Below are positions 4,118 through 63,611 of a stretch of 64,000 bases of DNA, in pieces; within the stretch, counting starts at the first letter, position 1; each line of letters starts with the position of its first letter. The notes below the pieces were generated by a model. It was not told the origin of the DNA. It did not search any database and saw nothing but the letters and a program-made list of their open reading frames with translations. The position numbers and the translations under genes were made by a program. Source of the DNA: a virus (Duplodnaviria > Heunggongvirae > Uroviricota > Caudoviricetes); IMG/VR virus record IMGVR_UViG_3300014204_000003, positions 1-64,000 of that record; one strand, written 5' to 3'.

Positions 4118-4164
4118 CTATATTCCTCTAGTTTTCATGATAATAGGCATGGTATGCTACTGAC

Positions 4165-10297: not shown

Positions 10298-10373
10298 TGG
10301 AGGGGCCAGTGGGATTCGAACCCACAATTCACGGAGCGAAAGTCCGTTGTCCTAACCGTTAGACGATGACCCC
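10298..10373 (-). tRNA. tRNA-Glu (anticodon UUC)
   Basis: Hand fold on the minus strand. T-arm GTGGG/TTCGAAT/CCCAC, a 7-bp acceptor with one G-U, anticodon loop CTTTCGC. CCA is encoded. Coordinates are ±2 nt. Confidence 0.7.
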
Positions 10374-10582
10374 TTTTGCTTGCATTCCCTGTCGGTTCTC
10401 CTGACAAGGCATTCGTATTCTACGATTGAATCATATCCTGATCCATGAGCAACTAAACTGGAAGCTCGCAGCCTCAACCAATCAGCCAATTCACATCGAC
10501 TTTCATGTGACATGGCCGCAGCGTCTTTGATCGTTAGAATAGCTCTAAACCCTTTTGCGCCCGGCATTAGATATTTAACCTC

Positions 10583-10658
10583 TGGCGGTTCCAACGGAAT
10601 TCGAATCCGTGTCTCCTGATCGACAGTCAGGAATCATGGGCCATTAGACGATGGAACC
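10583..10658 (-). tRNA. tRNA-Asp (anticodon GUC)
   Basis: Hand fold. T-arm ACGGA/TTCGAAT/TCCGT, acceptor GGTTCCA, anticodon loop CTGTCGA. CCA is encoded. Confidence 0.7.
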
Positions 10659-10668
10659 TTTATAGTCC

Positions 10669-10914
10669 TTAATCTTTTAAATCAAATTTTGCTGCAAATG
10701 CCTTCGCGGCAGTCTGAAACAGTGTCATAGATGTCTCTGCCAATACCGTCTCTCCAGATGGCAATTCAAAAACAAAGGCGATTGATGGCTTGCCACTCTC
10801 CATGCCTCCGGCTAAAGCCGCAACCGTTATTGGGGTTGTAAGGTGAATAACCTTTTCTGTTGGGACATCTTTTATGATTCCGGTTGCATCCATCACTATT
10901 TTAAGTACGGTCAT
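10669..10914 (-). CDS. hypothetical protein
   Basis: 81-aa ORF between tRNA genes. Confidence 0.35.
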   Translation of the reverse strand: MTVLKIVMDATGIIKDVPTEKVIHLTTPITVAALAGGMESGKPSIAFVFELPSGETVLAETSMTLFQTAAKAFAAKFDLKD

Positions 10915-17807: not shown

Positions 17808-17880
17808 CGTAAAAAGTTGGAATTGAACCAACTACCCATTGCTTTTCAGGCAATTGCTCTACCAGATGAGCTATTTTCAC
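17808..17880 (-). tRNA. tRNA-Phe (anticodon GAA)
   Basis: Hand fold in normal order. Acceptor GTGAAAA/TTTTTAC with one G-U, D-arm GCTC/ATCTGGTA/GAGC, anticodon arm with loop CTGAAAA, T-arm GTTGG/TTCAATT/CCAAC. Confidence 0.65.
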
Positions 17881-17910
17881 ATGTAAGCCGAACAGTATCA
17901 GGAAACTATA

Positions 17911-22627: not shown

Positions 22628-23905
22628 TCATCCGTTATTTTCCGCCAACATGCTCTTACCCACCCAAGTATTGCCAGTGGAAAGATACCTTACAGGAACT
22701 CCAGAAAGTTTCTCGACCTTGTTTATTATAGAATTGGTTGAGATAAGACTATAGGAATATTTTTTATCCCCGGACATCATATCTTGGGTGAGCTTTTTGG
22801 TAAAATTTCCCTTTTCGTCCAAATAACCATCGCAATAGACCCATTTATTTAAGAATTTCAATGCATCTATATGTGTTATTGCCAAGGCATCAACATTCCC
22901 TATGGCATTAAGTGCATATTTGAATGCCATAGCATCAAAATACCCGATTCTAAGTGATCCTTGCCATTCATTGTTGGTATTATGGTCATTCTTCCATGGA
23001 GTGATCCCCTTAATTGCCCCATTTGAGACCTCGGTAATAAAGGGGCCAGCACCATGCCTGGTGAAATATGATCGCACAACTCCGATTTTGGTTATTTCGA
23101 CGCCTGACCGAGCCCCATATTGGTTAATAATACTCAAAGCTCCGTTGAAAGTGCAATCCGACCACGTAATATGCTTTCCGAAGCCATGGATTTCATCCAG
23201 AAGCATGCCTTGGGCGCCCTCAAAGACAACGGCATTGGGATTTTCGATCGTAATATCATGCCACCCCCCCCAGCGAACGCTCTTGAACCATTCCTTGTAG
23301 TATTCCCAGACAGATGCGGGGCTTGTCATCTCCATCGATCGGTAAATCGAAATCGTTTCCTCGTTATTTACAAAATCACGGCACTGTTCGAGCTTGTAAT
23401 CCTTTATGTGAAATAGTTTATCCCGTCCATAGATGCTGGCAATGTCAGAGCCATCAAACCACAGTCCGGAAATCCTGTCTCCCCTGGTCTCTCCAATCCC
23501 CATTCCGCAGGACCCGTGACGGTTTGCTCCTCGGGACGCCTCCTTTAGGCGATTTGCCATAAAATGCCATGGGGTTATGATCGTACATTTAGGATTGATA
23601 AGGATACGCTTAAGACCATCATGAATGCCGACATAATAGAGATGATTATTTTCGTTGATCATCGCATAGGGTTCGATGAGCATATACTCAGAGAGGTAAG
23701 TCTGGCACCCGGGAATAAAGGTGCCGGACCCAAACTGTGCAAAGGTATGATGGCGGCCGTCAGGAAGCACGACATTATGTGCTGCCTGCGGACCGCCATT
23801 GTATCGGACTACCCATTTGGCATCATGCCATCGGCAAAGGTAATCAACCATCGTGCCTTTGCCTTCATCCCCGAATGCCAAACCTGCAACTATTAAACAC
23901 TTCAT
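22628..23905 (-). CDS. purA: adenylosuccinate synthetase (PurA family)
   Basis: 425 aa. The N-terminal GDEGKGT P-loop follows VVRYNGGPQAAHNV, matching the PurA pattern GDEGKGK...RYQGG.NAGH. Full-length PurA size. Confidence 0.85.
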   Translation of the reverse strand: MKCLIVAGLAFGDEGKGTMVDYLCRWHDAKWVVRYNGGPQAAHNVVLPDGRHHTFAQFGSGTFIPGCQTYLSEYMLIEPYAMINENNHLYYVGIHDGLKRILINPKCTIITPWHFMANRLKEASRGANRHGSCGMGIGETRGDRISGLWFDGSDIASIYGRDKLFHIKDYKLEQCRDFVNNEETISIYRSMEMTSPASVWEYYKEWFKSVRWGGWHDITIENPNAVVFEGAQGMLLDEIHGFGKHITWSDCTFNGALSIINQYGARSGVEITKIGVVRSYFTRHGAGPFITEVSNGAIKGITPWKNDHNTNNEWQGSLRIGYFDAMAFKYALNAIGNVDALAITHIDALKFLNKWVYCDGYLDEKGNFTKKLTQDMMSGDKKYSYSLISTNSIINKVEKLSGVPVRYLSTGNTWVGKSMLAENNG

Positions 23906-44627: not shown

Positions 44628-45790
44628 AATATTATGTTTTTCGCTAATGTATCCGCAATCCATGCCGATATAACTCCCATGAGGCAAATCACTATGAGTT
44701 ACCTTGACCAAGCTATCGCCTTTGCCCGCGCCAATATTGGCGAATGTTTCGCTGGCGCCTTTCTGCTCTATTTTGCCCTCTGGGCAATCTGGGGCTATCG
44801 CGCTTCCTTGCGTATCCATAAGAGATAACTATGAATCCCGTTGCTATCCACTATTTGAATAATGCCGATCGGAGTTTTGCTTTTTACCGGCTCCGTCAGA
44901 AAGGCCTTTTATGCCCGCTCCAATCATTACCCATCAAATCGAGGATCTTGAGCTATTGCCGAACCTTGATGACCTCTGCGATTGCCCTATGTGTGAGGCT
45001 CATGGCCTTACCGTTGCGGATCATCTCTTTATTAACTCACTGGGCAGCGAGCCCTGCATCGCCCCTTGTATCGAATAAGGAGGAGTCTTTCCATGTATAA
45101 GCGTCGCTATATGGTGCAATGGTTCAACCTGAGAACCCATAAGCTGCATTGCGTTAAGGATTTTCCCGCGCAACAATTTGTCACTGCCTGTCTCTCTGCC
45201 CGCGAAGATCATCCAGAGTTCTTCGCAACCCTCTACGATTTCGAATTGCGAGCTTATCGGAATATCAACCCTCATGACCTTTTGCAGGATCACATTGACG
45301 TTATTGGAGAATCTAAATGTCAGCATTAGACAATTTTGCGCAAGCCATGGCACAGCATCCAGCCTTTGCCCGCGCCAATGATTTTATGAAAGCTCGGAAG
45401 GAGGAAGGGGACGAATTTACCCTCTTCATTCTTGAGCCTGTCTTACAGACTGCCAAGATGGCCCTGAAAAATGGCAATTTCGAGCAATTGCATTCTAATC
45501 TTGCTGCCATCGACATAATGATTGCCAACCATGCCGAGACCGGAAATATCTACGGAGACGATTAGAATGAACATGAAACGCATTCCCAGAACCAAGCTTA
45601 CGTCCGGACTGGCAACCCTAACTAGCGCCTACAATGGTCTCTACTACCGATATGAACATGCCAATGCTTTGGATAAGCCTAATCTAGGCAAAGCTTTGGA
45701 TATCATCCATGCGAAGCGTGTCGAAATTGCCACTAGCATTTACGGATGATTGGCGAGTTAGCCCTGCATTCCTTGGAATGTTGGGCTGAT

Positions 45791-45817
45791 CCGCTGATTG
45801 CGGGGAAAAGAGAGAAT
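45791..45817 (+). promoter_or_regulatory. conserved 5'-UTR hairpin + purine-rich RBS motif, copy 1
   Basis: CCGCTgattgCGGGGAAAAGAGAGAAT directly precedes the ATG. Confidence 0.6.
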
Positions 45818-46318
45818 ATGACCGAGCCTAAATATCCATTCACAGCCTTTCGAATCCGCGAAGTACAGGTTAGCTATCTCACAGGGATTGAACTCCCTGA
45901 GCCTATATTGATCCATAATAGCCGTGATATATATATCCGTTTCCGAGACCGGCTGTTATCGTCTCCCGTTGAAGTGTTCGAGGCAATCCTTTTGAATTCG
46001 AAGAATGCCATCATGGGAATTGATCGCATTTCAATTGGATCGCTTAATAGCTCTACCGTGCATCCTCGTGAGGTTTTCTCTAAAGCTGTAAAGCTGCATG
46101 CCGCAGCTATTATTCTTATGCATAATCACCCCAGCGGGGACCCGGCGCCCAGCCGCGAGGATCGCGCTTGCACCGAACGCCTATATCATGCAGGGCTGAT
46201 TCTGGGTATTCGGGTCTTGGATCATATCGTTTTTGGCGATACTGATTATTATTCCTTTGCGGATTCTGGCGCTATGACTGAATTCCCGAAGATCCCCGGA
46301 CTTTCCTATTTGTCTTAA
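45818..46318 (+). CDS. RadC-like JAB/MPN-domain protein (start re-assigned to Met 25 of track ORF)
   Basis: AAAIILMHNHPSGDPAPSREDRACTERL has the RadC/JAMM HNHPSG plus S.ED motif. The conserved UTR hairpin/RBS motif sits directly upstream of this ATG. Confidence 0.65.
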   Translation: MTEPKYPFTAFRIREVQVSYLTGIELPEPILIHNSRDIYIRFRDRLLSSPVEVFEAILLNSKNAIMGIDRISIGSLNSSTVHPREVFSKAVKLHAAAIILMHNHPSGDPAPSREDRACTERLYHAGLILGIRVLDHIVFGDTDYYSFADSGAMTEFPKIPGLSYLS

Positions 46319-46366
46319 GAAGGCTGACTATCGAGTTATCCCCTCATCCTCGGATGTCGGGATAAT

Positions 46367-46394
46367 CCGCTAATCAGCGGGGAAAAGAGAAACC
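46367..46394 (+). promoter_or_regulatory. conserved 5'-UTR hairpin + RBS motif, copy 2
   Basis: CCGCTaatcAGCGGGGAAAAGAGAAACC then ATG at 46395. Confidence 0.6.
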
Positions 46395-46796
46395 ATGGCT
46401 GTTAATAGAATCGATAAGGCCTTTGCCGCTCAATTTCAGAAAGAAATATCCGAGGCAATCCAAACAGTAACTTCCAAGCATGGCATGAAAGCACTCCCTA
46501 GCCGATGCACATTTATCCCTGAGGCCGACGAGATTAATATTAAGCTCCCATTTCGGCGAATACCTACCGATGGCAAAACTGTCGAGCAAGTAGAATTCGA
46601 AAGGCATGCCTCCTCATTTGGTCTCAATGCCGATCTATTCGGCAAAGAGATTATCCTCAAGGGTAAGACGTACCATATAAGCGGAATTAGACCGGCGTCA
46701 TGGAAACGGCCTATCATCATAAAAGATGAAACCCATCATGCTTATGTCGTCCCAGTCGAAACCATTAACCGATGCTTGGGTATACAAGAAAATTGA
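46395..46796 (+). CDS. hypothetical protein
   Basis: 133-aa ORF preceded by the conserved UTR motif. Confidence 0.5.
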   Translation: MAVNRIDKAFAAQFQKEISEAIQTVTSKHGMKALPSRCTFIPEADEINIKLPFRRIPTDGKTVEQVEFERHASSFGLNADLFGKEIILKGKTYHISGIRPASWKRPIIIKDETHHAYVVPVETINRCLGIQEN

Positions 46797-46808
46797 TTTT
46801 GGAGTTCT

Positions 46809-46829
46809 CGTGTAAACCCGGTTTACACG
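46809..46829. repeat. extended palindrome CGTGTAAACCCGGTTTACACG, copy 4
   Basis: Seen in the sequence. Intergenic. Confidence 0.8.
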
Positions 46830-46868
46830 AGGATCCTTGAATCAATCAAGGGGAAAGCAGAGAGAAAC

Positions 46869-47273
46869 ATGATGCATTTTATTGAGAAAGACAGAACCCG
46901 ATTGTCTTACCGTAGTCAACCAATTGATGGCCATTTCATTGAAGTGAGCCTCTATTACTCCAAGGGCAGAGGCATCTATCTTTCAATCATGCCGATAGAG
47001 CGCAAGTCTTCGGGCGGATTTGTCACTGAGAGCTATATTGTCTGTTCCGGCTCCGGTGCCGTTAAGCTTGTCGATTTAGCCCGATCAAACCCTAAATTCC
47101 TTCGCAGTGTAGCCGCTCAAATTAATGATGTCACGCCGATCATGACGGCTCATCTTGATCACAGTAAATCCTCCGATGAATTCACAGCGGCCGTCATGAG
47201 TATCCGCGAATACTACCTGAACTCTTTTGCAAAACCCGCTCCGGCCTTGGAGGTTGCGCATGTCCAAGCGTAA
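46869..47273 (+). CDS. hypothetical protein
   Basis: 134-aa ORF. Confidence 0.45.
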   Translation: MMHFIEKDRTRLSYRSQPIDGHFIEVSLYYSKGRGIYLSIMPIERKSSGGFVTESYIVCSGSGAVKLVDLARSNPKFLRSVAAQINDVTPIMTAHLDHSKSSDEFTAAVMSIREYYLNSFAKPAPALEVAHVQA

Positions 47274-47826
47274 GAAATTGAGACCTCAGTATTTCCTGAG
47301 CCTTACCATGCGCGAAGAACCCAGCATGAAAGATATGGGACATGGGGACCAATCCCTGCTAATTATTTCAATCATCAAGAATGATTTTGAAGGAGGAGGA
47401 ACCTTACTGAACCCGATATGGAAGAATTGCGGGAGTCTCTTCGGTAATCGGGAATATGATCATCTTGAGCTTCGCGCCTATCTGTCTCAAGACACCGATC
47501 TTGCTTACGGCTCCAAGATAGCCTATTGGGAATCATTGCAGATTGATTCCGAAAGAGCAGCGACAATGTGCCGGGTACTTCGCAGAATTGACAAGAAGCT
47601 GAAGTATTTCAATAACTTTGAGGGATCGGTAGATGACATTGGTACGTTAGCCTATCGTTTTTGCCGTGCTATAGGCGCTGAGGGAATCATTGAATGGACA
47701 AGCAACCATTCCAGCTATGCAGACGCCTCCAATAAAAGATGGGATGTTGGACAAATCAAGAGCGTAGTCAATACGCGCATTTACCAATGGCATTGCGGAC
47801 ACCCGAAAGAAGCGCAAATCGCATAA
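47227..47826 (+). CDS. hypothetical protein
   Basis: 199-aa ORF. GGAGG lies upstream of the ATG. Confidence 0.45.
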   Translation: MQNPLRPWRLRMSKRKKLRPQYFLSLTMREEPSMKDMGHGDQSLLIISIIKNDFEGGGTLLNPIWKNCGSLFGNREYDHLELRAYLSQDTDLAYGSKIAYWESLQIDSERAATMCRVLRRIDKKLKYFNNFEGSVDDIGTLAYRFCRAIGAEGIIEWTSNHSSYADASNKRWDVGQIKSVVNTRIYQWHCGHPKEAQIA

Positions 47827-48709
47827 TCCGAGCGCCGACATGGATTCCTATTCATGCCGGCGCTCTTTAGCCGTCTAATAAGGAATGGACAATCATGCCA
47901 AGATTATTTGAGATTGCTAATGATGTCGTTGGGAAAATGGAAAACCCAAGACCGCGACGAATGAACCATAATTGTCGACAGACTAAGCACAAGTACCCCT
48001 GTCCTGTCTGTCATAAACCGAATTGCTTATCCGCAGAAGAATACCGCGTCGGATTCCTTTGTCATAAATGCTCACGGGAGGTTTAACATGCCTATTTTAT
48101 GGGATGTGAATAATATTCCGAAGACCTTATGTCAGGTTGTCGCACACCACAAGGCGACTAAAGGTTGCACGGATACCTATACCAATGGGGCGGAAATTGT
48201 CTGCCCTACCTGCAAGCTTAAGGCTCATCCGCTTTGCAATTTCGGATTTCTCCGCCTTCATGACCTCAACTACGTTGTGAATGAAATTATCGGATTGGAG
48301 GATTTTTAAATGAACCAAGACTGGGACAGAGAACCCGGCATGGATGCACACCGGCATGTTAAATACGGGGACGGATATATTACCAAAAACCCTATCAATA
48401 TGACCAAGACAGACAGGGATAGCCTTTTCACTGAGCTTGATTCCCATTTGCAAAAACAGAAGCTTCCCACGTCATACGGATTGCATCGATTAGCCCATGC
48501 TGATGAATTCATGCTTATGCACATATCCGAAGATGGCACTATCGGCTTTAAGCATATTTGCAGCCGCAACTATGTTTTCTTGGTGCCTAAGTATCGTCAC
48601 GAAGGATGCTATGAACTCTCTGTGCCGATAAGTAATGAACCCTTTATGCGCGGACAATTTGACGAATAAGCGGCGATTTAGCAAGCCAACTGGGGATTGG
48701 CTTGCTATA

Positions 48710-48742
48710 CCGCTACTTACAGCGGGGAAAGAGAGAAATACT
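48710..48742 (+). promoter_or_regulatory. conserved 5'-UTR hairpin + RBS motif, copy 3 (followed by TTG start)
   Basis: CCGCTacttacAGCGGGGAAAGAGAGAAATACT then an in-frame TTG. Confidence 0.5.
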
Positions 48743-48974
48743 TTGAATGATCCTATTGTAAAGATTGATTCCACTAATAACAGGCTTGTCATTAGCCTCC
48801 CTTTGGATACGCCGACGCCTTCCGCTTCCGGGAAAACCCTTGTGGTAGCTTCTACCCATGGGAACGTGAAGACCGGCGTCATGGTTAATGGGAAAGAAAT
48901 AACCATTGGCGTCAATGCTTACATAAAGCCCTAATGAAGTGCGAGTTTGCCAGCCGTGCCTTTGGGCTGGCATA

Positions 48975-49007
48975 TCCGCTTTTACAGCGGGGAAAAGAGA
49001 GAAACCC
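48975..49007 (+). promoter_or_regulatory. conserved 5'-UTR hairpin + RBS motif, copy 4
   Basis: CCGCTtttacAGCGGGGAAAAGAGAGAAACCC then ATG at 49008. Confidence 0.6.
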
Positions 49008-49859
49008 ATGTTAGATGAAATGAAACATGAAATTATGAAAGGCCTTCGATCCCAAGAACCTGGCAAATCATGGCGTATGGTTGAAAAGCATAATCCGTAT
49101 TCCGGAGAAAGTCTTTTCAATATTGGGAATAACTCCAATGAAGAAATCATTATTGGAGGTAATTGGCGCGGAGATAAGCTGGTAATAGGCGTGGAATGGC
49201 CTACCACTGATGATGGTAAGGTATCGCTTGCACCCAGCAAACCATATGATCACAAGGGCCCATGGTTTTCCATACAGGTCTCAAAAACCAAAAGCCCGGA
49301 TACCATAGCATCGGATATTATCCGCAGACTTATGCCTGATTACCGAAAAGAACTTGCGGAAATATTACAGCGTAAAGAAAACCACAATGCCGAATATGCC
49401 AAACGGGATGATTTGGCCAATCGAATCAAAAATATCCTACCCTCATGTCGGGAATCAAAACCGCAGGATATAACCTCTGATCGCAAATTAGAGGCAGGTC
49501 GCTATAACAGTGAATGGCTTGGATTGTCTAAATGCAATATTCAAATTTCCAGTTATCCGGCTGGGAATGAGAAAAGAACTAGATGGGAGATTGACGTTGA
49601 AGACCATCAGTTATCACTCGAGCTTGCACGGCTGATTCAACGCCATATCGCCGACAAGACATATGAGCACGAAAAAGCAACGAAGCCGGACACACCCGAA
49701 GAAAGGTATCAGGCTAACGTCGATTTTGTCCTGAAAGAATGGGATGAGGAACATATGGGAGAAATGCCCGAGAGTGATAAGGATGCTCTCAGGGTCTTTG
49801 CCGAATATTATAAATCCAAAGGCGTCCCTGTGCCTTATAACGAGGAAGACTATGCCTAA
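49008..49859 (+). CDS. hypothetical protein (start re-assigned)
   Basis: 283 aa from MLDEMKHE..., directly after UTR motif copy 4. Confidence 0.5.
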   Translation: MLDEMKHEIMKGLRSQEPGKSWRMVEKHNPYSGESLFNIGNNSNEEIIIGGNWRGDKLVIGVEWPTTDDGKVSLAPSKPYDHKGPWFSIQVSKTKSPDTIASDIIRRLMPDYRKELAEILQRKENHNAEYAKRDDLANRIKNILPSCRESKPQDITSDRKLEAGRYNSEWLGLSKCNIQISSYPAGNEKRTRWEIDVEDHQLSLELARLIQRHIADKTYEHEKATKPDTPEERYQANVDFVLKEWDEEHMGEMPESDKDALRVFAEYYKSKGVPVPYNEEDYA

Positions 49860-50102
49860 ATACGGACCGCTTGATAGCAGAATGCTTAAAGCCGCTAATA
49901 TTAGAGCTCGCGGCCGAAACGGATACTTCACAATCCAAGATGTTTGCCTGTATCCCCATGAGCATGAATCGATATGCTCTATCGAATTCACAAGCAGAAG
50001 CCCGATGACCCGGCAGGCTCCGATGATTATTAATGGCAAAAACGAAGACCTTAAACAGCTTTTCCAAGCCATCCTTAAACGGCTGATATAGGAGAACCCA
50101 AT

Positions 50103-50495
50103 ATGTTATGTACCAAAACGCAAAAGCAAACACCCCCCGGAAAGGCTCTAAATAATTGTGCAGTGTGCGGTGCAATCATTTGTTTCCATTGCTCTACTAA
50201 CAGCCCTAAAGGGTTAGTATGCATCGATGGCGATTGCAGACAGAAAGCCTTTGAAACGGAGACAACCTTAAAACCGCCGACGCAAGCGGAAATTTGCATT
50301 GCTCATCTTTGGGATGTCCTGTCTGATATCCTCCAAGAACCTCAATCATCGCAAGCCCTGAACGCAAAGCAAAGGGAAATGGTGGAAAAGGCTATAGCTG
50401 AATGTTTCTACCTTAGCAATAGATTCCCTATCCTTCTGGATATAAACCGAATTATCCAAGATCAAAGGAAGGCAATGAATGAGCACTCCTGCTAA
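50103..50495 (+). CDS. hypothetical Cys-rich protein
   Basis: 130-aa ORF containing CAVCGAIICFHCS...CIDGDC. Confidence 0.4.
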   Translation: MLCTKTQKQTPPGKALNNCAVCGAIICFHCSTNSPKGLVCIDGDCRQKAFETETTLKPPTQAEICIAHLWDVLSDILQEPQSSQALNAKQREMVEKAIAECFYLSNRFPILLDINRIIQDQRKAMNEHSC

Positions 50496-51057
50496 AACAC
50501 CCAAGGAATTGGAAGAACAGGGGATGATTATTGGAACATGCGAATGGTGCCACGATGAAAATGTCCCTATCTATAAAGAAACGGATCGTTGCGAAACCTG
50601 CGAAGAGCACTTTATTTATTGCTCAGTCTGTAAAGAAGAGCAATTTGAGGATGATCCATGTAGGCATATCTTCTGGACAGATAGCGGGTGGAGCGGATCA
50701 GGAGGAGAATATTCGGAAACAGAAATACGCGCCTCTTTAATCGCTCTTATCCAACCAATGCCGCAAGGATTCGCGCAGGATCTAAAAGCGGCTATTCAAT
50801 CTGGGAAATTTCGCACGTTTACCATTGGATGCATGTTTGGGAGTGTAAGCATTATCGAACTACATGGCCTCAAATACGCGTCCCAGTATAGCCGTGAATT
50901 AATCGCTCTCGGGAAAAGCGACCTCGCCGAACAATCTTCCGATGGTTGGAACTGGCTTGTATCCCTTGAAGAGGACAAGACGACGGAAGCCAATGCCTTA
51001 ACGATTAAATGGATTGACGAATTCATTTCACAAGGAGAAACCAAGCATGAATCTTAG
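50479..51057 (+). CDS. hypothetical zinc-finger protein
   Basis: CEWCHDENVP...CETCEEHFIYCSVCKEE. Confidence 0.45.
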   Translation: MSTPAKTPKELEEQGMIIGTCEWCHDENVPIYKETDRCETCEEHFIYCSVCKEEQFEDDPCRHIFWTDSGWSGSGGEYSETEIRASLIALIQPMPQGFAQDLKAAIQSGKFRTFTIGCMFGSVSIIELHGLKYASQYSRELIALGKSDLAEQSSDGWNWLVSLEEDKTTEANALTIKWIDEFISQGETKHES

Positions 51058-51877
51058 AGAATGGATGCCCACAAGAATACCGATCAGTCACCAATTGCCA
51101 CCGATGGCCCATGATGGTTGTCTACAAATTCCCGAAGAAACCGAAGCCGGCTGGGAAGCAATGCCTAAGGTTGGCGATATGCAGCCCGTGAAGGCAACGC
51201 GCCCTATGCCGAAATGGCTGAAGGATTACTTCACAGGGAATGAAAAGACCGGCTATACCTGTCGCGCCCCGTGGATGAAATACTTTGAGCCTCTGAAAAC
51301 TCCGGCATGCCCCAAATGCCCGAAGGATAGACAGGTTGCAACCACAATTGCCCGGCTGACCAAGAATATTGTAGCTAATCCGGGCGCCCAAAAGTATATC
51401 GGATCGCGCATACATGATTGGGAATGCATCGGTACTGATGGGTATCGAGCTCTTCTGGTATTGAAGCCTGAAAAGAAAGGCATAGCCGCCAATAAATGGC
51501 CGATAAACGATGTCCCTTCGCTGAATGACCCAGTAATTACTCTCGATGACCCCAATATTTTCTTGGCAATCAAACGGCTTGCTACCCTCATAAGAGAAGA
51601 GAAAGACCAATGGGTTCAATTCGATTGGAATCATGAGACCGAGCAACTGATTTTAACTGCCAGAAATTCCTATAGGGAAGAGGGAGTAGAACGGTTCTCA
51701 TGCTCGGGGACATTTTCCGGCAAGGTTAAGCTTGATCCTCAATTCGTCACTCCGATGCTTGGAACATGGCCCCTAAACCTCTATCACCAAGATAATGATC
51801 CAAAACGGCCCGTTGTTTTTATGCCGAATACCAAAAAGCGGGAGTTCATGTATGTTTTAATGACCGTGAATATCTGA
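51014..51877 (+). CDS. hypothetical protein
   Basis: 287-aa ORF. Confidence 0.45.
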   Translation: MTNSFHKEKPSMNLREWMPTRIPISHQLPPMAHDGCLQIPEETEAGWEAMPKVGDMQPVKATRPMPKWLKDYFTGNEKTGYTCRAPWMKYFEPLKTPACPKCPKDRQVATTIARLTKNIVANPGAQKYIGSRIHDWECIGTDGYRALLVLKPEKKGIAANKWPINDVPSLNDPVITLDDPNIFLAIKRLATLIREEKDQWVQFDWNHETEQLILTARNSYREEGVERFSCSGTFSGKVKLDPQFVTPMLGTWPLNLYHQDNDPKRPVVFMPNTKKREFMYVLMTVNI

Positions 51878-51895
51878 CAATCGAGGTCTTGCCGT

Positions 51896-51910
51896 GTAAA
51901 CCAGGTTTAC
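51896..51910. repeat. GTAAACCAGGTTTAC palindrome variant, copy 5
   Basis: Seen in the sequence. Intergenic, immediately upstream of UTR-motif copy 5. Confidence 0.75.
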
Positions 51911-51921
51911 ATGGCTGGACT

Positions 51922-51952
51922 CCGCTTATCAGCGGGGAAAGAGAGAAGCCTC
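51922..51952 (+). promoter_or_regulatory. conserved 5'-UTR hairpin + RBS motif, copy 5
   Basis: CCGCTtatcAGCGGGGAAAGAGAGAAGCCTC then ATG at 51953. Confidence 0.6.
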
Positions 51953-52306
51953 ATGCCAAGATTTCTTGTACTCAGTTACGACAATGATGCGCAACAGACT
52001 CATTATGATTGGGTTTGTGCCCCTAATGAGGATGCAGCCACAGAGCAAATAGACACCTTGCGTCCTTATGCCCTTACTTCCTGCGCCATTCCTCCGGAAG
52101 AATTAAGAGCTATGGCTGAAAAACTGGAAAAGGCAACCGAAGCGGAAATTCAGGAAGCCCTCTATCTGGTTGCCGAAGAATCTCAATTGCTGGATCCCGA
52201 TGATCCTGCGCTTGCCATTGAAGCCGACGAATCCATTGAAAGTTGGCATCTCATTGGGAATGACCGCTTATGGTTCGGAAAGGTTGGAGGAAAAGAAAAT
52301 GCCTAA
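51953..52306 (+). CDS. hypothetical protein, paralog A (MPRFLVLSYDNDAQQ...)
   Basis: The N-terminus is clearly paralogous to the next gene (MPKFIVISYDKDEEQ...). Confidence 0.5.
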   Translation: MPRFLVLSYDNDAQQTHYDWVCAPNEDAATEQIDTLRPYALTSCAIPPEELRAMAEKLEKATEAEIQEALYLVAEESQLLDPDDPALAIEADESIESWHLIGNDRLWFGKVGGKENA

Positions 52307-54031: not shown

Positions 54032-54486
54032 CGCGAGTGAATCCAAATATAGTTGCCTTAACAGAATCAGTTGTAGGTGGCGCCCCGTTTAAAATCGGGG
54101 ATGTTGTCAAGCATCCGACTGGAAAGATGGTTAAAATCATCTCCGGACAATATTGGGGGAAATACGGTATTTCCAACTTCTGGTATTGGCGGGAAGTCAA
54201 AGAATCTGGAGGCCTTGGCAAGGAAGAATGCGGATATGGATGGAGGCAATTAGTGAGAGAACCAAAGTTTGTCATGGTTATGCTTGATGGTGAACCAACT
54301 ATTCACGCTACTTCGGTACATGGTAACTACGACGATACCCTTTGTGGAATAGATGCCAATGACAATGTAGGCCATGAAGGCATGTACCCAGCCGCCGAAG
54401 GAGCTAAAATAACGTGCATGGATTGCATCCGCTTGATTAAATATTGCCGAAAATATGGCAACGCCGATTTAAGGAGTGAGAAATGA
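54016..54486 (+). CDS. hypothetical protein
   Basis: 156-aa ORF. Confidence 0.4.
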   Translation: MGDFMTRVNPNIVALTESVVGGAPFKIGDVVKHPTGKMVKIISGQYWGKYGISNFWYWREVKESGGLGKEECGYGWRQLVREPKFVMVMLDGEPTIHATSVHGNYDDTLCGIDANDNVGHEGMYPAAEGAKITCMDCIRLIKYCRKYGNADLRSEK

Positions 54487-55067
54487 GCCATCTTTTTTTA
54501 GATGAATCCAAGATCCATATCCTTTTGGAATCCGCAAAGGGAAATCTCCGGGATTATGCTCTATTGCACATAGCAGCATCAACAGCCCTGCGTTCTTCTG
54601 ACATCCTGAGGATTAAACTGGAGGAGATAGTCAGCCGCGACGGAGACATCATCCATTTACTCAGGCTGAAGATGTTAAAAACCTCTCGGTGGATTGAACG
54701 GCCTCTCAGGGACGATTGCCGGCAAGCTATTTTCACTTGGATAAACAGCCGCAGGGACAAAAATCCATATCTCTTCTGTTCTTTGAGCCCGAATAGCAAA
54801 AATAGCAATTTCCCACTCCAGCGGAAGTCGTATCACGAAATCATGAAGAAATATCTGGGGATGCAATATAGCCCATCCGTGCTGCAAGGATGTTCCACTC
54901 ACACCCTAAGGCGATCGGTGGCAAAGGCTGTCTATAAAAAAACTGGAGAAATTGCGGCAGCCCAAATACTTTTGGGTCATTCCTCTCCGGTTGCGACATC
55001 TCTTTACATAGACCCTTTGGATATAAAAGAAAGAACCAATAAGATTGTGATGGACTTAAACTATTAA
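54483..55067 (+). CDS. tyrosine recombinase/integrase, catalytic domain only
   Basis: The C-terminal HTLRRSVAKAVYKKTGEIAAAQILLGHSSPVATSLYIDP has the integrase H-x-x-R...H...Y signature with the conserved Tyr. There is no N-terminal core-binding domain in this 194-aa ORF. Confidence 0.6.
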   Translation: MSHLFLDESKIHILLESAKGNLRDYALLHIAASTALRSSDILRIKLEEIVSRDGDIIHLLRLKMLKTSRWIERPLRDDCRQAIFTWINSRRDKNPYLFCSLSPNSKNSNFPLQRKSYHEIMKKYLGMQYSPSVLQGCSTHTLRRSVAKAVYKKTGEIAAAQILLGHSSPVATSLYIDPLDIKERTNKIVMDLNY

Positions 55068-55086
55068 GAATCTTATTCTATTTGCG

Positions 55087-55162
55087 GCGGGATACAGTAG
55101 GGGTTACTGGCTTGGCTCATAACCAAGACATAGGCGGAGTTCAAATCTCCGCTCCCGCTCCC
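55087..55162 (+). tRNA. tRNA-Met/fMet/Ile2 (anticodon CAU)
   Basis: Hand fold on the plus strand. Acceptor GCGGGAT/CTCCCGC, D-arm CAGT/AGGGGTT/ACTG, anticodon arm CTTGG-CTCATAA-CCAAG, T-arm CGGAG/TTCAAAT/CTCCG. It lies about 20 nt downstream of the recombinase stop. Confidence 0.6.
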
Positions 55163-55725
55163 AGATTTATACATCTTTCATTGACAGCCAGTTCGATCAT
55201 TGGATACAATCAATTTGCTTGGTTTCTCTCGGGGGGCTTGCCAGATCGGGGCGGGCTCCCCATTCCTTTTTATACCCCAACCAATTCCAGATAGACACGC
55301 AGCGCGTCATGTGCCAATGCCCAAGAACGCGCAGCTTCGGCGCCTTGGTGCCTGAGTATGTTAGTTATTTTTTTCTTTGGGTATGTTTGTGCGTAGTAGC
55401 GGGCAATCTGATTCTTTTTACGTCCGAGATGACGTACTTTTGCCGCGCCTTTTTTGGGTTTATTAAGGTCTCCCATGATTTTAGCTCCTTTTGAGTTTGC
55501 TAAAGTGTCATAAGAGACCTCCCATGGAGAATGCAGAACCTTGTATCGCACGCTTATTCTAATATTTTTATATATCCTGTCAATTATATTTTGTATAATC
55601 CGGTTGTTATCAGTGGTTATGTTTAGAAATTCAAATAACCGACGAATTACCAATAGCTGCATAAAAAAGGGGCCTCAGCTTGTGGTTGAGGCCCCTGAAA
55701 TATTTATACAAGGAGACCCAAGCTC

Positions 55726-59818: not shown

Positions 59819-60633
59819 TATTTGCCATCCCCAAACTTAATTGTGCAAGTGGATTCCTTTATTCTACGCAGCATTGCATCCCCATAAACATCCGAGAAAT
59901 CCTTCTCGTTATAATTCGTGGTGATATTCAGGACTACATTGGATGGATTTGAACAGCAGTAGTCGGCAATGCTAAATAGCTGATTATAAACATATTCACT
60001 CTCAGGAGCTTTTCCCCATTCGTCTATGAATAAGTGGAAGGGACCAAAGTAGCTTTTTTTTAAATCACTGACTGTTACCAAATTATGGTCTACGTCTCCA
60101 GAACGCCCGAGCTCATCTTTGCGGAGGCTATTTACGAGATCACGACAAGAGGTAAACTTTGCTTGGCGCCCGGCATATAGGGCTTCCTTGTACAGGGCCC
60201 ACATAAGATAACTCTTGCCGGTCCCGGACGGTCCCAAGAAGAAGAATGCATCCAGTGGGCTTTCCTTAATAAACTCAATAATTGCAACTTGACGAGATAA
60301 ATCGGAATAGAGTTTTTCGTAAGGCGTTATGTCTTTAAGCCTTGGAGCTTTCAGGAATATCTCCGGTACTGTTTTCCTGATTATCGATTCCGCTCTCCGG
60401 TTCAGGACACACTGGCACACTCGAACCGCCGTTCGTTCCTGATTCCATATTTCCCCCATGTCGTTGCAGCCAGCGCAAAGAGGGTTCGATTTTGACAGTA
60501 AGTTTGGGTTTTCCTCCCACGCCTTTTCCATTTTCTGTTGTATGTCCTTCAATACTTCCCCGATTACGCCGCTTACGGGATTCGGCTGCTTGGTCTCCAT
60601 TGTCCTTAAAATTCCTTTCATAGGTTCCACCAA
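59818..60633 (-). CDS. DnaC/IstB-like AAA+ helicase loader
   Basis: FFFLGPSGTGKSYLMWAL Walker A and LFIDEWG Walker B, with an N-terminal Cys cluster (CAGC...CQC). The start overlaps the upstream gene tail. Confidence 0.65.
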   Translation of the reverse strand: MVEPMKGILRTMETKQPNPVSGVIGEVLKDIQQKMEKAWEENPNLLSKSNPLCAGCNDMGEIWNQERTAVRVCQCVLNRRAESIIRKTVPEIFLKAPRLKDITPYEKLYSDLSRQVAIIEFIKESPLDAFFFLGPSGTGKSYLMWALYKEALYAGRQAKFTSCRDLVNSLRKDELGRSGDVDHNLVTVSDLKKSYFGPFHLFIDEWGKAPESEYVYNQLFSIADYCCSNPSNVVLNITTNYNEKDFSDVYGDAMLRRIKESTCTIKFGDGK

Positions 60634-61774
60634 GGACTTTATTTATTCGATCAATATCCTTGGCCAGCCAAGTCGGTGACATAAACCAATAATTTGTCGG
60701 ATGAGTCTTTGTGGCCATCCTCGTTACAAACTCACTCCACTTATCAAGTCCACCCATTTTATTGAAAACTTCACATAGCTTCTCCAGAAGATCTGGATTA
60801 AGGCCTACAACGACTTCTTGCAACGGTCCTCTTTTTTTATTCCATTCCTCAATTAAAAGTAAGGGAGATATAGAGGGTTTATACTGCTTCTGTTCCTGCT
60901 TCTGTTCCTGCTTCTGGATAGCTTGGTCATACCTGAAGACTTCCGGTAAGACTAACATGAAGCCTTGCGTTAAGCCTAAGGCGTAGTCTTTAACCTGTTG
61001 AATTAATTCATCTTTAAGGGTACACTCCGGGACTAACTCCAACGCTGACCCCCATGATTTAACCGCATTAGGAGACTCCGGTGGGTTGTATTTCTGGAAC
61101 TTGGGAAGCCATATAAAAGAAGCCTTTTCATCGTGCTTAACCATGTCCTTAGATAGGGCTTCATTGAAGGCATCACGGAAGGCTTCCGGTAGCCATCCAA
61201 GCTCTGCTGCCAGTCCGGGGATGGATCCTCTCATAGCCCCTAACATGGTTATAAATGGATGCGTGAGTAAAAACAGAAACACAAGCTTGCCCTCATTAGA
61301 CAGGCTCATAAATTTAGAATCATTCCATATTGTCGGGCTTATTTTACGATAACGGCTACCCATGGTTTCTCCTTCAACTTCCTGATCGGTTCCAATCGCA
61401 TGAGAATTTTGGGGAGAGGCTTCGTTATCCGCCTCTCCGTGTTTTTCGCTATACTCGTTTGCCATCTTTATTCGTGGGGATTGCGAGGATTTTACTGCGG
61501 ATTTTAATTCTTTATTATTATTCCTGACGGCCGATAAAAGATATTCAATATTAGACCGTTTTTTTATTGCCAAATTAAACGCTTCGATGACAATATCCGG
61601 ATTCTCTCCCGACAACTCCCATATTTGCATTGCCAGTTCTTTTAATGGAGCTTCCTCTTTTTTATTGTAAAAGAGGATCTTACCGTTGCCGGCTATCTTC
61701 TTTAGGACGCCATTAATGTCATTGGAGCAAGTCGGAATCCTATTCCTTGTCAGACTTTCCCAAGTTTCTCCCAT
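60335..61774 (-). CDS. putative replication initiation / replisome-organiser protein
   Basis: 479-aa ORF immediately upstream of the loader-helicase pair. The central Q/E/K-rich linker is encoded by the tandem repeat cttctgttcctg x3. Function inferred only from position. Confidence 0.35.
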   Translation of the reverse strand: MGETWESLTRNRIPTCSNDINGVLKKIAGNGKILFYNKKEEAPLKELAMQIWELSGENPDIVIEAFNLAIKKRSNIEYLLSAVRNNNKELKSAVKSSQSPRIKMANEYSEKHGEADNEASPQNSHAIGTDQEVEGETMGSRYRKISPTIWNDSKFMSLSNEGKLVFLFLLTHPFITMLGAMRGSIPGLAAELGWLPEAFRDAFNEALSKDMVKHDEKASFIWLPKFQKYNPPESPNAVKSWGSALELVPECTLKDELIQQVKDYALGLTQGFMLVLPEVFRYDQAIQKQEQKQEQKQYKPSISPLLLIEEWNKKRGPLQEVVVGLNPDLLEKLCEVFNKMGGLDKWSEFVTRMATKTHPTNYWFMSPTWLAKDIDRINKVLGGTYERNFKDNGDQAAESRKRRNRGSIEGHTTENGKGVGGKPKLTVKIEPSLRWLQRHGGNMESGTNGGSSVPVCPEPESGIDNQENSTGDIPESSKA

Positions 61775-62769: not shown

Positions 62770-63310
62770 CGCACGGTATCCCCTTGATTAATTCTTCTGT
62801 GTTGGGAAATGACAATTGCTGTTTTGTGACGTACCGTTCATATGCCTTGGCTTCTGCTAGGAAGCCGAATACCGGATCCCCAGTTTTGCCCTTACTTCGC
62901 CAACTTATGATATGTAGACGGGCAATTACGCAATCTATCCCGACATATCGGCATAGAGCCGGAAACCAAGCTTCGCCAAATAAAACCCTCTTGGCATCCC
63001 TTCTGAGCTTATCCGATATCCCCTTAGACAGGTAATCCTTTTCTGCCCGCCTGACTATATCAATCATAATTTTGACTCGCCGGGCGGCCGGCAGGTCTTG
63101 ATCAAACGGCCAATCAGAACGGGATATCTTCGTCGGTAATTGGTCGATTTTTGTAACTGTCGAATAATTCGTCTTTCTTGGTGGTGGTACTGCGCGGCCC
63201 ACCATCTGGACCAAACATTCCCGGAGTGCTGCCGGGCTTTTCGCTTTCTGGGGGATGGGCATCCTGTGCTGGCCTTGCTCCGCCTGGTGCGGTAATTTCC
63301 CTGACGACAA
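62705..63310 (-). CDS. hypothetical protein
   Basis: 201-aa ORF. Confidence 0.4.
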   Translation of the reverse strand: MSSGKLPHQAEQGQHRMPIPQKAKSPAALRECLVQMVGRAVPPPRKTNYSTVTKIDQLPTKISRSDWPFDQDLPAARRVKIMIDIVRRAEKDYLSKGISDKLRRDAKRVLFGEAWFPALCRYVGIDCVIARLHIISWRSKGKTGDPVFGFLAEAKAYERYVTKQQLSFPNTEELIKGIPCDGRDPRIRPGYRPGQPSSARN

Positions 63311-63611
63311 TTTCTGTGGCCGTTTTCTCTATGCTATCCCTGCCGGTGTATTTCCGGACCTGTATTTCTCCTTGGACAACAACAAACTGGCCCTTTTTAA
63401 GATACTGATAACAGAATTCCGCAATTCTGTCAAAGGCAACACAGTTGATCCAAGTAGCATTCTCTTTGGTTTCTCCCTCAGCATTGATGTAATTGCGATT
63501 TACCGCAATACTGAAGGTCGCTCTGGCCTTTTTACCCGGGCCCGCTACTGTCCCTTCCGGATCCCGGCCCAAGTGTCCCGTTCCAAACCACCTATTTTGA
63601 TCGTTTGCCAT
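63114..63611 (-). CDS. ssb: single-stranded DNA-binding protein
   Basis: OB-fold pattern (RWFGTGHLGRDPE...ATFSIAVNR...WINCVAFDRIAEF...KGQFVVVQGEIQVRKY) and the acidic C-terminal tail ending DEDIPF. Confidence 0.85.
   Translation of the reverse strand: MANDQNRWFGTGHLGRDPEGTVAGPGKKARATFSIAVNRNYINAEGETKENATWINCVAFDRIAEFCYQYLKKGQFVVVQGEIQVRKYTGRDSIEKTATEIVVREITAPGGARPAQDAHPPESEKPGSTPGMFGPDGGPRSTTTKKDELFDSYKNRPITDEDIPF

Follow-up and report, generated by a model that had tools for sequence, protein, structure and literature searches.

An intercistronic cassette with two alternative RNA folds precedes six genes of an uncultured phage and recurs in four related phages

The early genes of phage T7 carry RNase III processing signals (R0.3, R0.5, R1, R1.1 and R1.3), reportedly set out by Dunn and Studier in 1983. 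Together with the start-associated sequences (SAS) of cluster K mycobacteriophages these are, by analogy, the nearest counterparts of the cassette analyzed here. Like the cassette, the T7 signals occur as several related copies between genes of a polycistronic early region and consist of upper and lower stems separated by a small internal loop. Both are placed so that a cut would leave a hairpin at the 3' end of the upstream message and release the next message a little 5' of its ribosome-binding site. The stems of the cassette, in contrast, total about 18-25 bp, which is short for such substrates; it has no sequence similarity to the T7 sites and no Rfam match, and we know of no T7 site that carries its conserved purine tract or refolds into a 5' hairpin. 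The SAS were described in 2011 (PMC3203893) and have been surveyed in 188 genomes (PMC12699233). They too are short asymmetric motifs a few nt before the starts of a subset of genes, found in a single orientation and only in the non-structural half of the genome, at the ribosome-binding position and conserved beyond what pairing with rRNA would need; an inverted repeat with a variable spacer often lies upstream, different gene families carry them in different relatives, and they are absent from host genomes. The two sequences are unrelated (GGGATAGGAGCCC vs GGGGAAAGAGAGAAAC), and SAS contain a canonical AGGAG core which the cassette tract lacks. Pope et al. (PMC3203893) saw no support for RNA pairing in the departures within the ESAS repeats and preferred a DNA-binding protein as the explanation, whereas pairing in the cassette is strongly backed by covariation. 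The cassette also adds a variable hairpin, an overlap with the upstream stop codon and a competing second fold.

The window, by which we mean the whole 64,000-nt stretch that was analyzed (positions 1 to 64,000 of IMG/VR record IMGVR_UViG_3300014204_000003), comes from an uncultured phage of 107 kb in which six genes each have a spacer cassette of about 75 nt upstream. The pattern CCGC-N3-9-GCGGGGAAA gave five exact matches in the window, at 45791, 46367, 48710, 48976 and 51922, all on the plus strand, while shuffled sequence predicted 0.01. These matches and the start codons which follow them (45818, 46395, 48743, which is a TTG, 49008 and 51953) were at the positions given in the initial annotation, which had proposed a conserved hairpin and purine-rich tract before five genes. 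That list was one short, as a sixth copy (W3) with its start codon at 46869 had been overlooked because its arms are CCTTG/CAAGG. Searching beyond these sites added 27 copies from four related IMG/VR phages, bringing the total to 33 in five related phages; all 33 are on the coding strand and every one is followed by ATG or TTG. No further copies were found elsewhere in the window, in 19 kb flanking it, or in structural regions of the relatives totalling 85 kb, and the cassette is confined to one phage clade and to one gene module, which is non-structural and probably early. Since the 33 copies are paralogues and orthologues within that clade they are non-independent, and the p-values given here therefore overstate support.

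As read from the sequences, the design is common to the source phage and four diverged relatives. No Rfam family was matched in the region 45700-52000 at E <= 1, CRISPR direct-repeat families included, and the cassette is not a described RNA family. That it mimics a CRISPR repeat, as a solitary repeat unit or an RNA anti-CRISPR, is hardly credible: in addition to the Rfam result, the stem covaries freely (CCGCT, CCTTG, CCGCG), which would spoil imitation of one Cas6 or Cas5 site, and the copies keep closely to start codons, although CCGCTAATCAGCGGGGAAAAG superficially resembles CCCCGCGCCAGCGGGGATAAACC, which we take to be the type I-E repeat core, and the module also holds an Aca2/YdiL-like HTH gene and a RadC-like gene.

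Each cassette is made up of four parts, strand U, hairpin A, hairpin B and the tract GGAAAGAGAGAAAC, which occupy the whole gap from stop to start codon (66-83 nt in 30 of the 33 copies). Strand U overlaps the upstream stop codon, which lies in or beside U in nearly all copies and ends 4-20 nt 5' of hairpin A. All 33 copies contain hairpin A, a strong stem of 9-14 bp that differs in sequence from copy to copy and ends 0-6 nt before hairpin B; spacing between the conserved parts varies with its length. The start codon is found 0-10 nt 3' of the tract. Only hairpin B and the tract had been described previously, hairpin A and the full stop-to-start span being absent from that account, and the 5-bp stem CCGCT/AGCGG applies to four of the five sites, the stem at 45791 having only 4 bp (CCGC/GCGG).

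All six window copies and their downstream genes are on the plus strand. W1 (45747-45817, 16.7 bits) extends from a TGA stop to the base before ATG 45818 and comprises U (45747-45756), hairpin A (45757-45790), hairpin B (45791-45803, CCGC tgatt GCGG) and the tract GGAAAAGAGAGAAT (45804-45817); its lowest-energy fold is the long hairpin described below (z = -4.5), and it precedes a gene for a RadC-like JAB domain protein (45818-46318, 166 aa from the motif-based start; PF04002, E = 1.9e-41). W2 (46316-46394, 21.7 bits, TAA to ATG 46395; fold z = -3.3) has U at 46316-46334, hairpin A at 46335-46366, hairpin B at 46367-46380 (CCGCT aatc AGCGG) and the tract GGAAAAGAGAAACC at 46381-46394, and is followed by a gene of 133 aa (46395-46796) with no match in the family search. 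W3 (46794-46868, 33.6 bits, TGA to ATG 46869; z = -4.2) contains U (46794-46803), hairpin A (46804-46834), hairpin B (46835-46851, CCTTG aatcaat CAAGG) and the tract GGAAAGCAGAGAGAAAC (46852-46868). Its U pairing reaches about 46792, with an 8-bp pairing of ATTGATTT with GAATCAAT, and the downstream gene (46869-47273, 134 aa) likewise had no family match. In W4 (48667-48742, 32 bits, TAA to TTG 48743; z = -3.7) the parts are U 48667-48678, hairpin A 48679-48707, hairpin B 48710-48725 (CCGCT acttac AGCGG) and tract 48726-48742; the gene that follows encodes 63 aa from its TTG start (48743-48934), and its homologues in two of the relatives, phages A and B, also have a cassette upstream. W5 (48932-49007, 21.2 bits, TAA to ATG 49008; z = -2.5) is divided into U 48932-48947, hairpin A 48948-48972, hairpin B 48976-48990 (CCGCT tttac AGCGG) and tract 48991-49007, ahead of a 283-aa gene (49008-49859) without a family match. 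W6 (51875-51952, 27.3 bits, TGA to ATG 51953) has U at 51875-51890, hairpin A at 51891-51915, of the GTGTAAACC.GGTTTACA family also found in W3, hairpin B at 51922-51935 (CCGCT tatc AGCGG) and the tract at 51936-51952; hairpins A plus B are its lowest-energy fold (z = -3.4), and its downstream gene (51953-52306, 117 aa) was again without a family match. Among the start sites reassigned in the initial annotation, TTG 48743 is backed by a homologue with 73% identity, whose ATG falls opposite residue 1 in the alignment. The reassignments to 45818 and 49008, and the use of 51953 in preference to 51911, are plausible from the layout common to the 33 copies.

Pairing in both hairpins is supported by sequence change between copies. 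In hairpin B 97% of cells were compatible with pairing compared with 75.8% after shuffling and 35%-69% in sliding controls; three of its five pairs, the inner ones, covary with changes on both sides, whereas neither the two outermost C-G pairs nor GGAAAGAGAG ever change and the loop varies (3-10 nt). For hairpin A, nine compensatory and five wobble-compatible changes were counted between orthologous or paralogous copies. Strand U pairs with the 5' arm and loop of hairpin B, copy by copy (helix C, p < 0.0002), in a register that is consistent between copies. The mean U-with-B duplex energy was -9.2 kcal/mol for native and -5.6 kcal/mol for non-native combinations, with none of 5000 permutations reaching the native mean, and the native pairing was better in 170 of 192 within-phage comparisons (Wilcoxon p = 6.5e-7). 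A CGA box in U accompanies a CCGC arm in B 20 times and a GGA box a CCTT arm 10 times, with one exception (Fisher p = 2.5e-7). Because U is complementary to the 5' arm and loop of hairpin B, two mutually exclusive folds of similar energy result: a long interrupted hairpin of about 20-25 bp, with helix C beneath hairpin A, or hairpins A and B side by side. In 26 of the 33 copies the energies of the two lie within about 3 kcal/mol of each other. Folding of the complete stop-to-start RNA gave the long hairpin as the lowest-energy fold in five of six window copies (z = -2.5 to -4.5), so the 5-bp hairpin proposed earlier is not the preferred fold there and the region of the stop codon takes up its 5' arm instead. 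Rather than a 5-bp hairpin with a ribosome-binding site, the functional unit is a cassette of about 75 nt that has two alternative folds.

The sense strand outfolds the antisense strand (mean -2.9 kcal/mol, p = 0.006; 96 G-U pairs), and the cassette most likely acts in mRNA rather than as duplex DNA. The earlier idea of a shared leader acting on the mRNA of small plus-strand genes is in keeping with strand specificity, fixed position, hairpin covariation and recurrence in four relatives. It is very improbable that we are dealing mainly with a DNA-level feature whose RNA structure is incidental, be it a palindromic mobile element of small size or a conserved linker that promotes recombinational shuffling of gene cassettes, in the manner proposed for T4 PeSL elements. 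Such a feature would fit the mosaic gene content between cassettes across the five phages, the presence or absence of a cassette before orthologous genes and the RadC gene, whose upstream copy is of CCGC type in the window phage and of CCTT type in phages A and B, but not the strict strand bias (33/33), the fixed spacing to starts, the advantage that G-U pairs give the sense strand or the maintenance of stems by compensatory changes. Recombination is more probably a side effect of the repeats than what they are for.

T7 class III promoters have G-rich start sites, and the promoter hairpins of the N4 virion RNA polymerase have 3-nt loops. A promoter of either the duplex type (phage-directed RNA polymerase, GGGG start, T7-like GGGAGA) or the N4-like DNA hairpin type, with hairpin A as the upstream terminator, is improbable here, and the promoter-proximal role once suggested for the element was not supported. 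A conserved block of about 35 nt does recur before several genes, its G-rich start resembles that of T7 class III promoters and, as in N4, a 5-7-bp hairpin with conserved flanks stands before genes that are probably early; intergenic repeats carry promoters in some viruses, for instance in halovirus HF2 (PMC8707807). However, pair covariation and copy-specific complementarity of U with B are unexpected in a duplex promoter, the loops do not keep to 3 nt, hairpin A has no T-run, and the extra hairpin and alternative fold set the cassette apart from N4 promoters. Every copy lies inside an operon and never at the head of a transcription unit, an upstream same-strand ORF ending 66-107 nt before the start; the first four genes of the plus-strand unit have no cassette, internal spacing is variable, and neither sigma-70-like hexamers nor terminators were seen in the elements. 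No RNA polymerase (including one of the giant N4 type) or sigma factor family was found in the window and extra loci, which together covered all but about 15-25 kb of the genome; the largest window ORF has 630 aa.

Our preferred reading, to which we give a probability of roughly 0.4, is that of a cis-acting intercistronic mRNA cassette which combines processing and stabilisation with a standard ribosome-binding site. In the primary transcript the long hairpin would form, with upper stem, small internal loop and lower stem as in a T7 RNase III signal, and a double-strand-specific endonuclease of the RNase III type would cleave it near the internal loop or linker. Hairpin A would stay on the upstream mRNA as a protective 3' end, and the new 5' end of the downstream mRNA would refold into hairpin B, a protective 5'-terminal stem that displays the unpaired GGAAAG(A)GAG tract as a standardised ribosome-binding site. 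Each shuffled accessory gene would thus receive a context-independent, stabilised start region. Protection by 5'-terminal hairpins was reportedly described by Emory, Bouvet and Belasco in 1992, and ompA-leader-type stem-loops of E. coli and synthetic RBS insulators (RiboJ, Csy4-processed leaders) make expression independent of upstream context. In these, as in the cassette, a small hairpin lies directly 5' of an unstructured ribosome-binding stretch, but the cassette is natural, repeated and phage-borne, and its hairpin B would come to lie at a 5' end only through cleavage. Against the processing reading, every step beyond the existence of the two folds is inferred, and the long hairpin is about as small as RNase III substrates get.

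The same two folds could serve a ribosome-driven coupling switch without cleavage, which we regard as doubtful. A ribosome terminating upstream would cover U and melt helix C, hairpin B would snap shut and (re-)initiation would be favoured, while without upstream translation the long hairpin would form. The stop codon in or beside U in nearly all copies, the tightly constrained stop-to-start distance, the near-equal energies of exclusive folds with three-way covariation, and the placing of the stop codon beside the tract by the base of the long hairpin are all in keeping with this. On the other hand, re-initiation would have to span 70-80 nt that include a hairpin of 9-14 bp, which is far, and the predicted unpaired probability of the tract was unchanged by blocking the upstream region (0.64 vs 0.65, p = 0.25), which argues against gating of the ribosome-binding site by simple sequestration.

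By itself, processing leaves it unexplained that the tract and the two outer pairs in hairpin B are invariant in sequence, a pattern that could instead point to a sequence-specific protein. In phage translational operators the bound site usually takes in the start codon or the Shine-Dalgarno sequence, and the hairpin loop is the usual specificity determinant. It is unlikely, though conceivable, that the cassette is an operator at which a phage or host RNA-binding protein reads the CC/GG base of hairpin B and the purine tract and switches the gene set on or off jointly, as with T4 RegA or the MS2 coat-protein operator. Invariant outer pairs plus GGAAAGAGAG with variable inner pairs and loop form the pattern of a reader of stem base and 3' tail, and the element is restricted to one module and one clade; like the sites of RegA, the MS2/PP7 coat proteins and Mu Com/mom, it is a cis RNA at the initiation region, multi-gene or hairpin-defined. 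Its loop is variable, however, the bound protein is hypothetical, searches of the window turned up no family of RNA-binding proteins, no gene that strictly accompanies the element was identified, and helix C and the ever-present hairpin A would be left unexplained. An operator is compatible with processing and stabilisation rather than exclusive of it.

The tract itself is conserved, single-stranded and purine-rich and stands at the Shine-Dalgarno position, where other genes of the source phage have AAGGAGAAACC-N-ATG. With one A bulged it could pair over 9 bp with a 16S rRNA tail ending ...CUCCUUUCU-3'. Pairing of GGAAAGAGAG with the tail CACCUCCUUUCU, an assumed tail that may not be the host's, was predicted at -9.7 kcal/mol; with a short tail of the E. 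coli type it was -6.0 kcal/mol, weaker than the -7.7 kcal/mol of other genes. In copies C7 (GGAAGGAGAG) and D6b (GGAAAGGAGAC) the tract has been turned into a canonical AAGGAG.

An exact search for CCGC-N3-9-GCGGGGAAA matched the 64 kb window five times, at 45791, 46367, 48710, 48976 and 51922 (0.01 matches in shuffled sequence). All five matches were on the plus strand and each ended a few bases short of a start codon, as the initial annotation had described for its five small hairpins with a purine-rich ribosome-binding region. A covariance model built from related copies recovered these five and a sixth copy at 46831-46864 (W3; arms CCTTG/CAAGG, start codon at 46869), so the earlier count was real but incomplete; no copy beyond the six was found by this model on either strand of the window. 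A subset alignment was used as the seed of the model, as the first MAFFT alignments had misplaced loop gaps. The hairpin itself was likewise real and backed by covariation, but proved to be only one part of a more elaborate cassette of about 75 nt with two competing predicted folds. The analysis also corrected gene starts in the module, and the covariance model is now available for locating further copies.

The window belongs to the genome, approximately 107 kb long, of an uncultured phage, and contigs identical to this phage were found in ENA (ERZ27247350, 106,964 bp), in JGI (3300037067) and in one Logan assembly. Genes in the window include portal, 12 tRNA genes, DnaB, a helicase loader, SSB and a PurA-like enzyme. 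Among cultured phages there was no DNA match for the region and no close protein match, and since the capsid-like protein had no match and the portal matched only at 25-27% identity, the host could not be deduced. IMG/VR, searched by motif and with protein anchors, yielded four relatives of 102-110 kb, namely phage A (3300037067_015039, 6 copies), phage B (3300037067_017859, 5 copies), phage C (3300047586_000066, 7 copies) and phage D (3300027887_000007, 9 copies), whose module proteins are 35-73% and capsid-like proteins 73-79% identical to those of the window. Together with the six window copies this gave 33 copies, of which one in phage C (C7) was counted from the motif scan, the covariance model not having brought it to E ≤ 1.

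The window cassettes are located in a plus-strand module at about 44.8-58.3 kb, made up of small genes mostly without a family match, the first four of which lack the motif. At 44817-44834 only 12 nt separate the starts of two divergent genes (44819 on the minus strand, ATG at 44831 on the plus strand); as this gap has no space for divergent promoters, either one of the starts may be miscalled or the promoters may be within coding sequence. Every one of the 33 copies was on the coding strand and ahead of an ATG or TTG. The element was not found in 19 kb flanking the window, in 85 kb of the relatives' structural regions or in the more distant relatives L045-L047, L051 and L052, and a scan of metagenomes for g13, a conserved protein of the module, returned two short, distant loci only, both lacking the element. 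When 185,579 bacterial and archaeal genomes were scanned for the exact motif, there were 11 single matches in unrelated taxa with no common context. As roughly 8 were estimated by chance, the element is neither a host motif nor a detectable prophage.

Each copy occupies the entire gap between two genes of the same strand, with a stop-to-start distance of 66-83 nt in 30 of the 33; three phage D copies have an extra upstream hairpin. The 5' segment, strand U, is about 8-16 nt long, starts at or includes the upstream stop codon and has the box NCGA or TGGA at its 3' end. Hairpin A follows, with 9-14 bp and no two copies alike in sequence, and ends 0-6 nt 5' of hairpin B. Comparison of orthologous and paralogous copies revealed nine compensatory and five wobble-compatible changes in hairpin A, and one hairpin A family, GTAAACCNGGTTTAC, occurs in window copies W3 and W6, that is, with both of the box/arm types described below. 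For hairpin B, the hairpin reported initially, 97% of cells were paired on the model-based alignment, compared to 75.8% after shuffling and 35%-69% when the partner column was slid. Its outer two C-G pairs are invariant, the inner three pairs alternate (GC/UA, CG/UA and GC/UA/AU), and its loops of 3-10 nt have no consensus. The best-conserved stretch is the purine tract GGAAAGAGAGAAAC, which is predicted to be unpaired and ends 0-10 nt 5' of the start codon.

Within each copy strand U is complementary to the 5' arm and loop of hairpin B, a pairing termed helix C. The mean energy of helix C was -9.2 kcal/mol for native combinations vs -5.6 kcal/mol for all non-native combinations and -6.4 kcal/mol for non-native combinations of the same type, and none of 5000 permutations attained the native mean. 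In within-phage comparisons the native pairing was better in 170 of 192 (p = 6.5e-7) and the mean z-score against shuffled U was -1.9. The register of helix C was constant in nearly all copies. Double changes were observed as well: U contains ...TGAT... and the loop ...ATCA... in W3 vs ...TAAT... and ...ATTA... in copies A2 and B1 of phages A and B, and in phage C TAGGT is found with ACCTA (C2) vs TAGTT with AATTA (C1). A CGA box occurred with a CCGC arm 20 times and a GGA box with a CCTT arm 10 times, with one exception (p = 2.5e-7), and both types were present in all five phages. Position 3 of the 5' arm of hairpin B thus covaries both with the box and with the 3' arm, which implies that the two pairings exclude each other. 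The statistics throughout overstate independence, because the copies are paralogues and orthologues from one clade, but qualitatively the pattern is robust, with compensatory changes in three helices and in five diverged genomes.

Constrained energies of the two folds were no more than about 3 kcal/mol apart in 26 of 33 copies, and the long interrupted hairpin formed by helix C and hairpin A was the lowest-energy fold in five of the six full window elements, with z-scores from -2.5 to -4.5. Taken together, these comparisons show a strand-specific, clade-restricted element of about 75 nt with two conserved, competing predicted secondary structures. The gene behind the cassette differs between phages; the RadC cassette is of the CCGC type in the window and of the CCTT type in A and B, and the g5 homologue is preceded by the element in A and B but not in the window. 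One reading of the cassette is a purely DNA-level recombination linker. The sense strand outfolded the antisense strand (p = 0.006) and 96 of 746 pairs were G-U, which points to RNA, or at least to the sense strand, rather than to a symmetric site in duplex DNA, and we regard such a linker as improbable. Mimicry of a CRISPR repeat, as an RNA anti-CRISPR, is the least credible of the readings considered: the stem covaries freely rather than being fixed, and with the Rfam 15 covariance models only tRNAs exceeded the gathering threshold in the window, while 45700-52000 gave no match to any described RNA family at E ≤ 1.

The other genes of the window phage have canonical ribosome-binding sites, often AAGGAGAAACC-N-ATG, and the tract occupies the same position with GAGAG in place of GGAG. 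In two variant copies (C7 and D6b, from phages C and D) the tract has turned into AAGGAG. With a short E. coli-type 16S tail the predicted pairing of the tract genes was weaker than that of other genes (-6.0 vs -7.7 kcal/mol). When a tail ending ...CUCCUUUCU-3' was assumed, GGAAAG(A)GAG gave nine pairs with a single A bulged out (-9.7 kcal/mol) and the motif genes were level with the others (-7.9 vs -8.2). This bulged 9-bp pairing is an inference which presupposes a host with a 16S tail ending ...CCUCCUUUCU-3'. Sequestration of the ribosome-binding site in a simple occlusion switch was rejected, as the predicted accessibility of the tract was the same in both states (0.64 vs 0.65).

Our best model, to which we assign a probability of about 0.4, is T7 RNase III-type processing followed by refolding of hairpin B beside a standard ribosome-binding tract. 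The long interrupted hairpin would be the processing signal, and a cut near its internal loop would leave hairpin A on the upstream message, while the new 5' end of the downstream message would refold as hairpin B adjoining the tract. Both folds would be employed in succession, and this would explain the absence of simple tract sequestration. A ribosome-driven coupling switch between the same folds, operating without cleavage, is rather unlikely in our judgement. We put an operator for a putative RNA-binding protein, reading the invariant stem base and the tract, on the same unlikely footing, and it would be compatible with the processing model. The approximately 100 window ORFs and the extra loci contained no member of an RNA polymerase, sigma factor, RNase or RNA-binding family, a search which left about 15-25 kb of the genome outside.

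The initial annotation had also offered a promoter-proximal element, and we consider a promoter quite improbable. No cassette contained a sigma-70-like promoter (-35/-10 hexamers with 16-18-nt spacing) or a terminator-like site, the copies are never first in a transcription unit, and the variable length of hairpin A rules out a fixed promoter spacing. In the scanned 43.5-56 kb the only near-consensus sigma-70 sites were TTGACA-18-TACAAT at 55181-55210 (+) and TTGACA-16-TAGAAT at 55583-55556 (-). A 130-aa gene on the minus strand lies between these two sites, and there is a terminator-like hairpin at 55231-55261. The hairpin promoters of phage N4 have a 5-7-bp stem and a 3-nt loop, and the N4 virion RNA polymerase gene encodes about 3500 aa. 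An N4-like promoter was rejected on the loop lengths of 3-10 nt; the largest ORFs were 630 aa in the window, 726 aa in L065 and 769 aa in the relative L069, with about 15-25 kb of genome outside view. An intrinsic (Rho-independent) terminator was also rejected, since no cassette has a GC-rich hairpin with a T/U run and the bases after hairpin A are GATACC or ATCC. Lambda nut and HK022 put sites were set aside because these are two copies just after promoters and are not found ahead of six genes. RNase P punctuation by a tRNA-like structure (NCC after hairpin A) was set aside as speculative, and bypassing of the T4 gene 60 type and plasmid ssDNA promoters were considered and set aside.

The closest described phenomenon is the SAS/ESAS of cluster K mycobacteriophages, repeated motifs directly upstream of starts which have been known since 2011 with their mechanism unexplained (PMC3203893, PMC12699233). 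SAS and cassette share a position a few bp before starts, a single orientation, a restriction to non-structural genes, an association with varied gene families and an unexplained function; here all 33 copies were on the coding strand with the tract 0-10 nt from the start, and none was in a structural region. Unlike SAS, the tract (GGGGAAAGAGAGAAAC) has no canonical AGGAG core, and it does not match the 13-bp SAS consensus GGGATAGGAGCCC within 2 mismatches. ESAS are inverted repeats of 17 bp, imperfect and with a separate consensus for each subcluster, in which deviations from the consensus fail to maintain pairing, and Pope et al. found RNA pairing to lack support and rejected an RNA-structure explanation (PMC3203893). 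In contrast, hairpin A has no sequence consensus, hairpin B has 5 bp with compensatory changes, and RNA pairing is supported. In its workings the cassette would come nearest to the T7 early RNase III sites plus a 5' stabilising hairpin. In the predicted folds, helix C and hairpin A together make a hairpin between genes that, as in a T7-type signal, spans about two helical turns and is interrupted by an internal loop (about 18-25 bp, internal loop of 1-3 nt).

The cassette belongs with start-associated intercistronic leader elements, as a new variant for which the structure has support and the mechanism is a model. It provides an independent start-associated case, unrelated in sequence to the cluster K motifs and from an uncultured phage clade, in which RNA structure has clear backing from base-pair covariation, with indications of two competing folds that link up with the stop codon before them and the ribosome-binding site after them. 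Precise predictions follow for cut sites, compensatory mutants and 16S rRNA tail pairing. More tentatively, and with some doubt, the cassette might represent a bistable phage mRNA element of a class not described before. A terminating upstream ribosome, or a dedicated nuclease or RNA-binding protein, would flip the RNA between the long stop-codon-containing hairpin and the start-proximal hairpin, setting processing, stability and initiation of the next gene via non-canonical, tail-directed Shine-Dalgarno pairing. If true, this would offer a structural explanation for start-associated sequences unexplained since 2011 and a natural 'plug-and-play' expression insulator for accessory genes shuffled between phages; should it act as an insulator, it would supply a compact natural part for standardised operon expression.

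Several further features were seen in the relatives. Phage C has one tract-like sequence in reverse orientation at L050 10603-10624 (-), equivalent to about 1338-1350 (+) of L002 (plus strand TTCTCTTCCCCGC), at a gene end and adjoining a GC-rich hairpin, which could be what is left of a former copy or could act as an antisense partner. A search of the window for an antisense partner of the tract found none within 2-3 mismatches. In phage D a separate 14-nt palindrome, GTCCAATATCGGAC or GTCCGATATTGGAC, lies directly upstream of four cassettes (L064, about 925-940, 1955-1970, 4120-4135 and 7285-7300) and may be an operator for a DNA-binding protein. The distant, GC-rich relative L045 has its own start-associated repeat, CCGCTCCCCTCACACYCTGGAGACTCCGCT-ATG, unrelated to the cassette and present three times (7032-7079, 7408-7455 and 7846-7893); modules of this kind may recurrently have start-associated leaders. 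At L052 6346-6510 AT-rich repeats of about 34 nt (TGTAACTTATAAG...) are clustered in a manner reminiscent of iterons or a replication origin.

Elsewhere in the window, eleven tRNA genes occupy 10298-17881 (-), and inside this array a 118-aa protein with an RF-1 domain and GGQ motif, similar to a peptidyl-tRNA hydrolase or release factor, is encoded at 13502-13855 (-). A lone tRNA-Met (55086-55163, +) directly follows a short tyrosine recombinase of 194 aa (54483-55067). The replication module on the minus strand (63117-63611, 59821-60633 and 60338-61774) encodes SSB, an IstB-like ATPase, a DnaD-like helicase loader and DnaB, and Pfam matches elsewhere in the 33.8-63.6 kb scan set included a PNKP-type phosphatase, an Aca2/YdiL-like HTH protein and a PhoH-like protein. 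The PurA-like adenylosuccinate synthetase at 22631-23905 (-) is 35-37% identical to mycobacteriophage proteins annotated as 'PurA-like / 2-aminooxy adenylosuccinate synthetase', and from this similarity it could point to a modified purine metabolism of the PurZ type.
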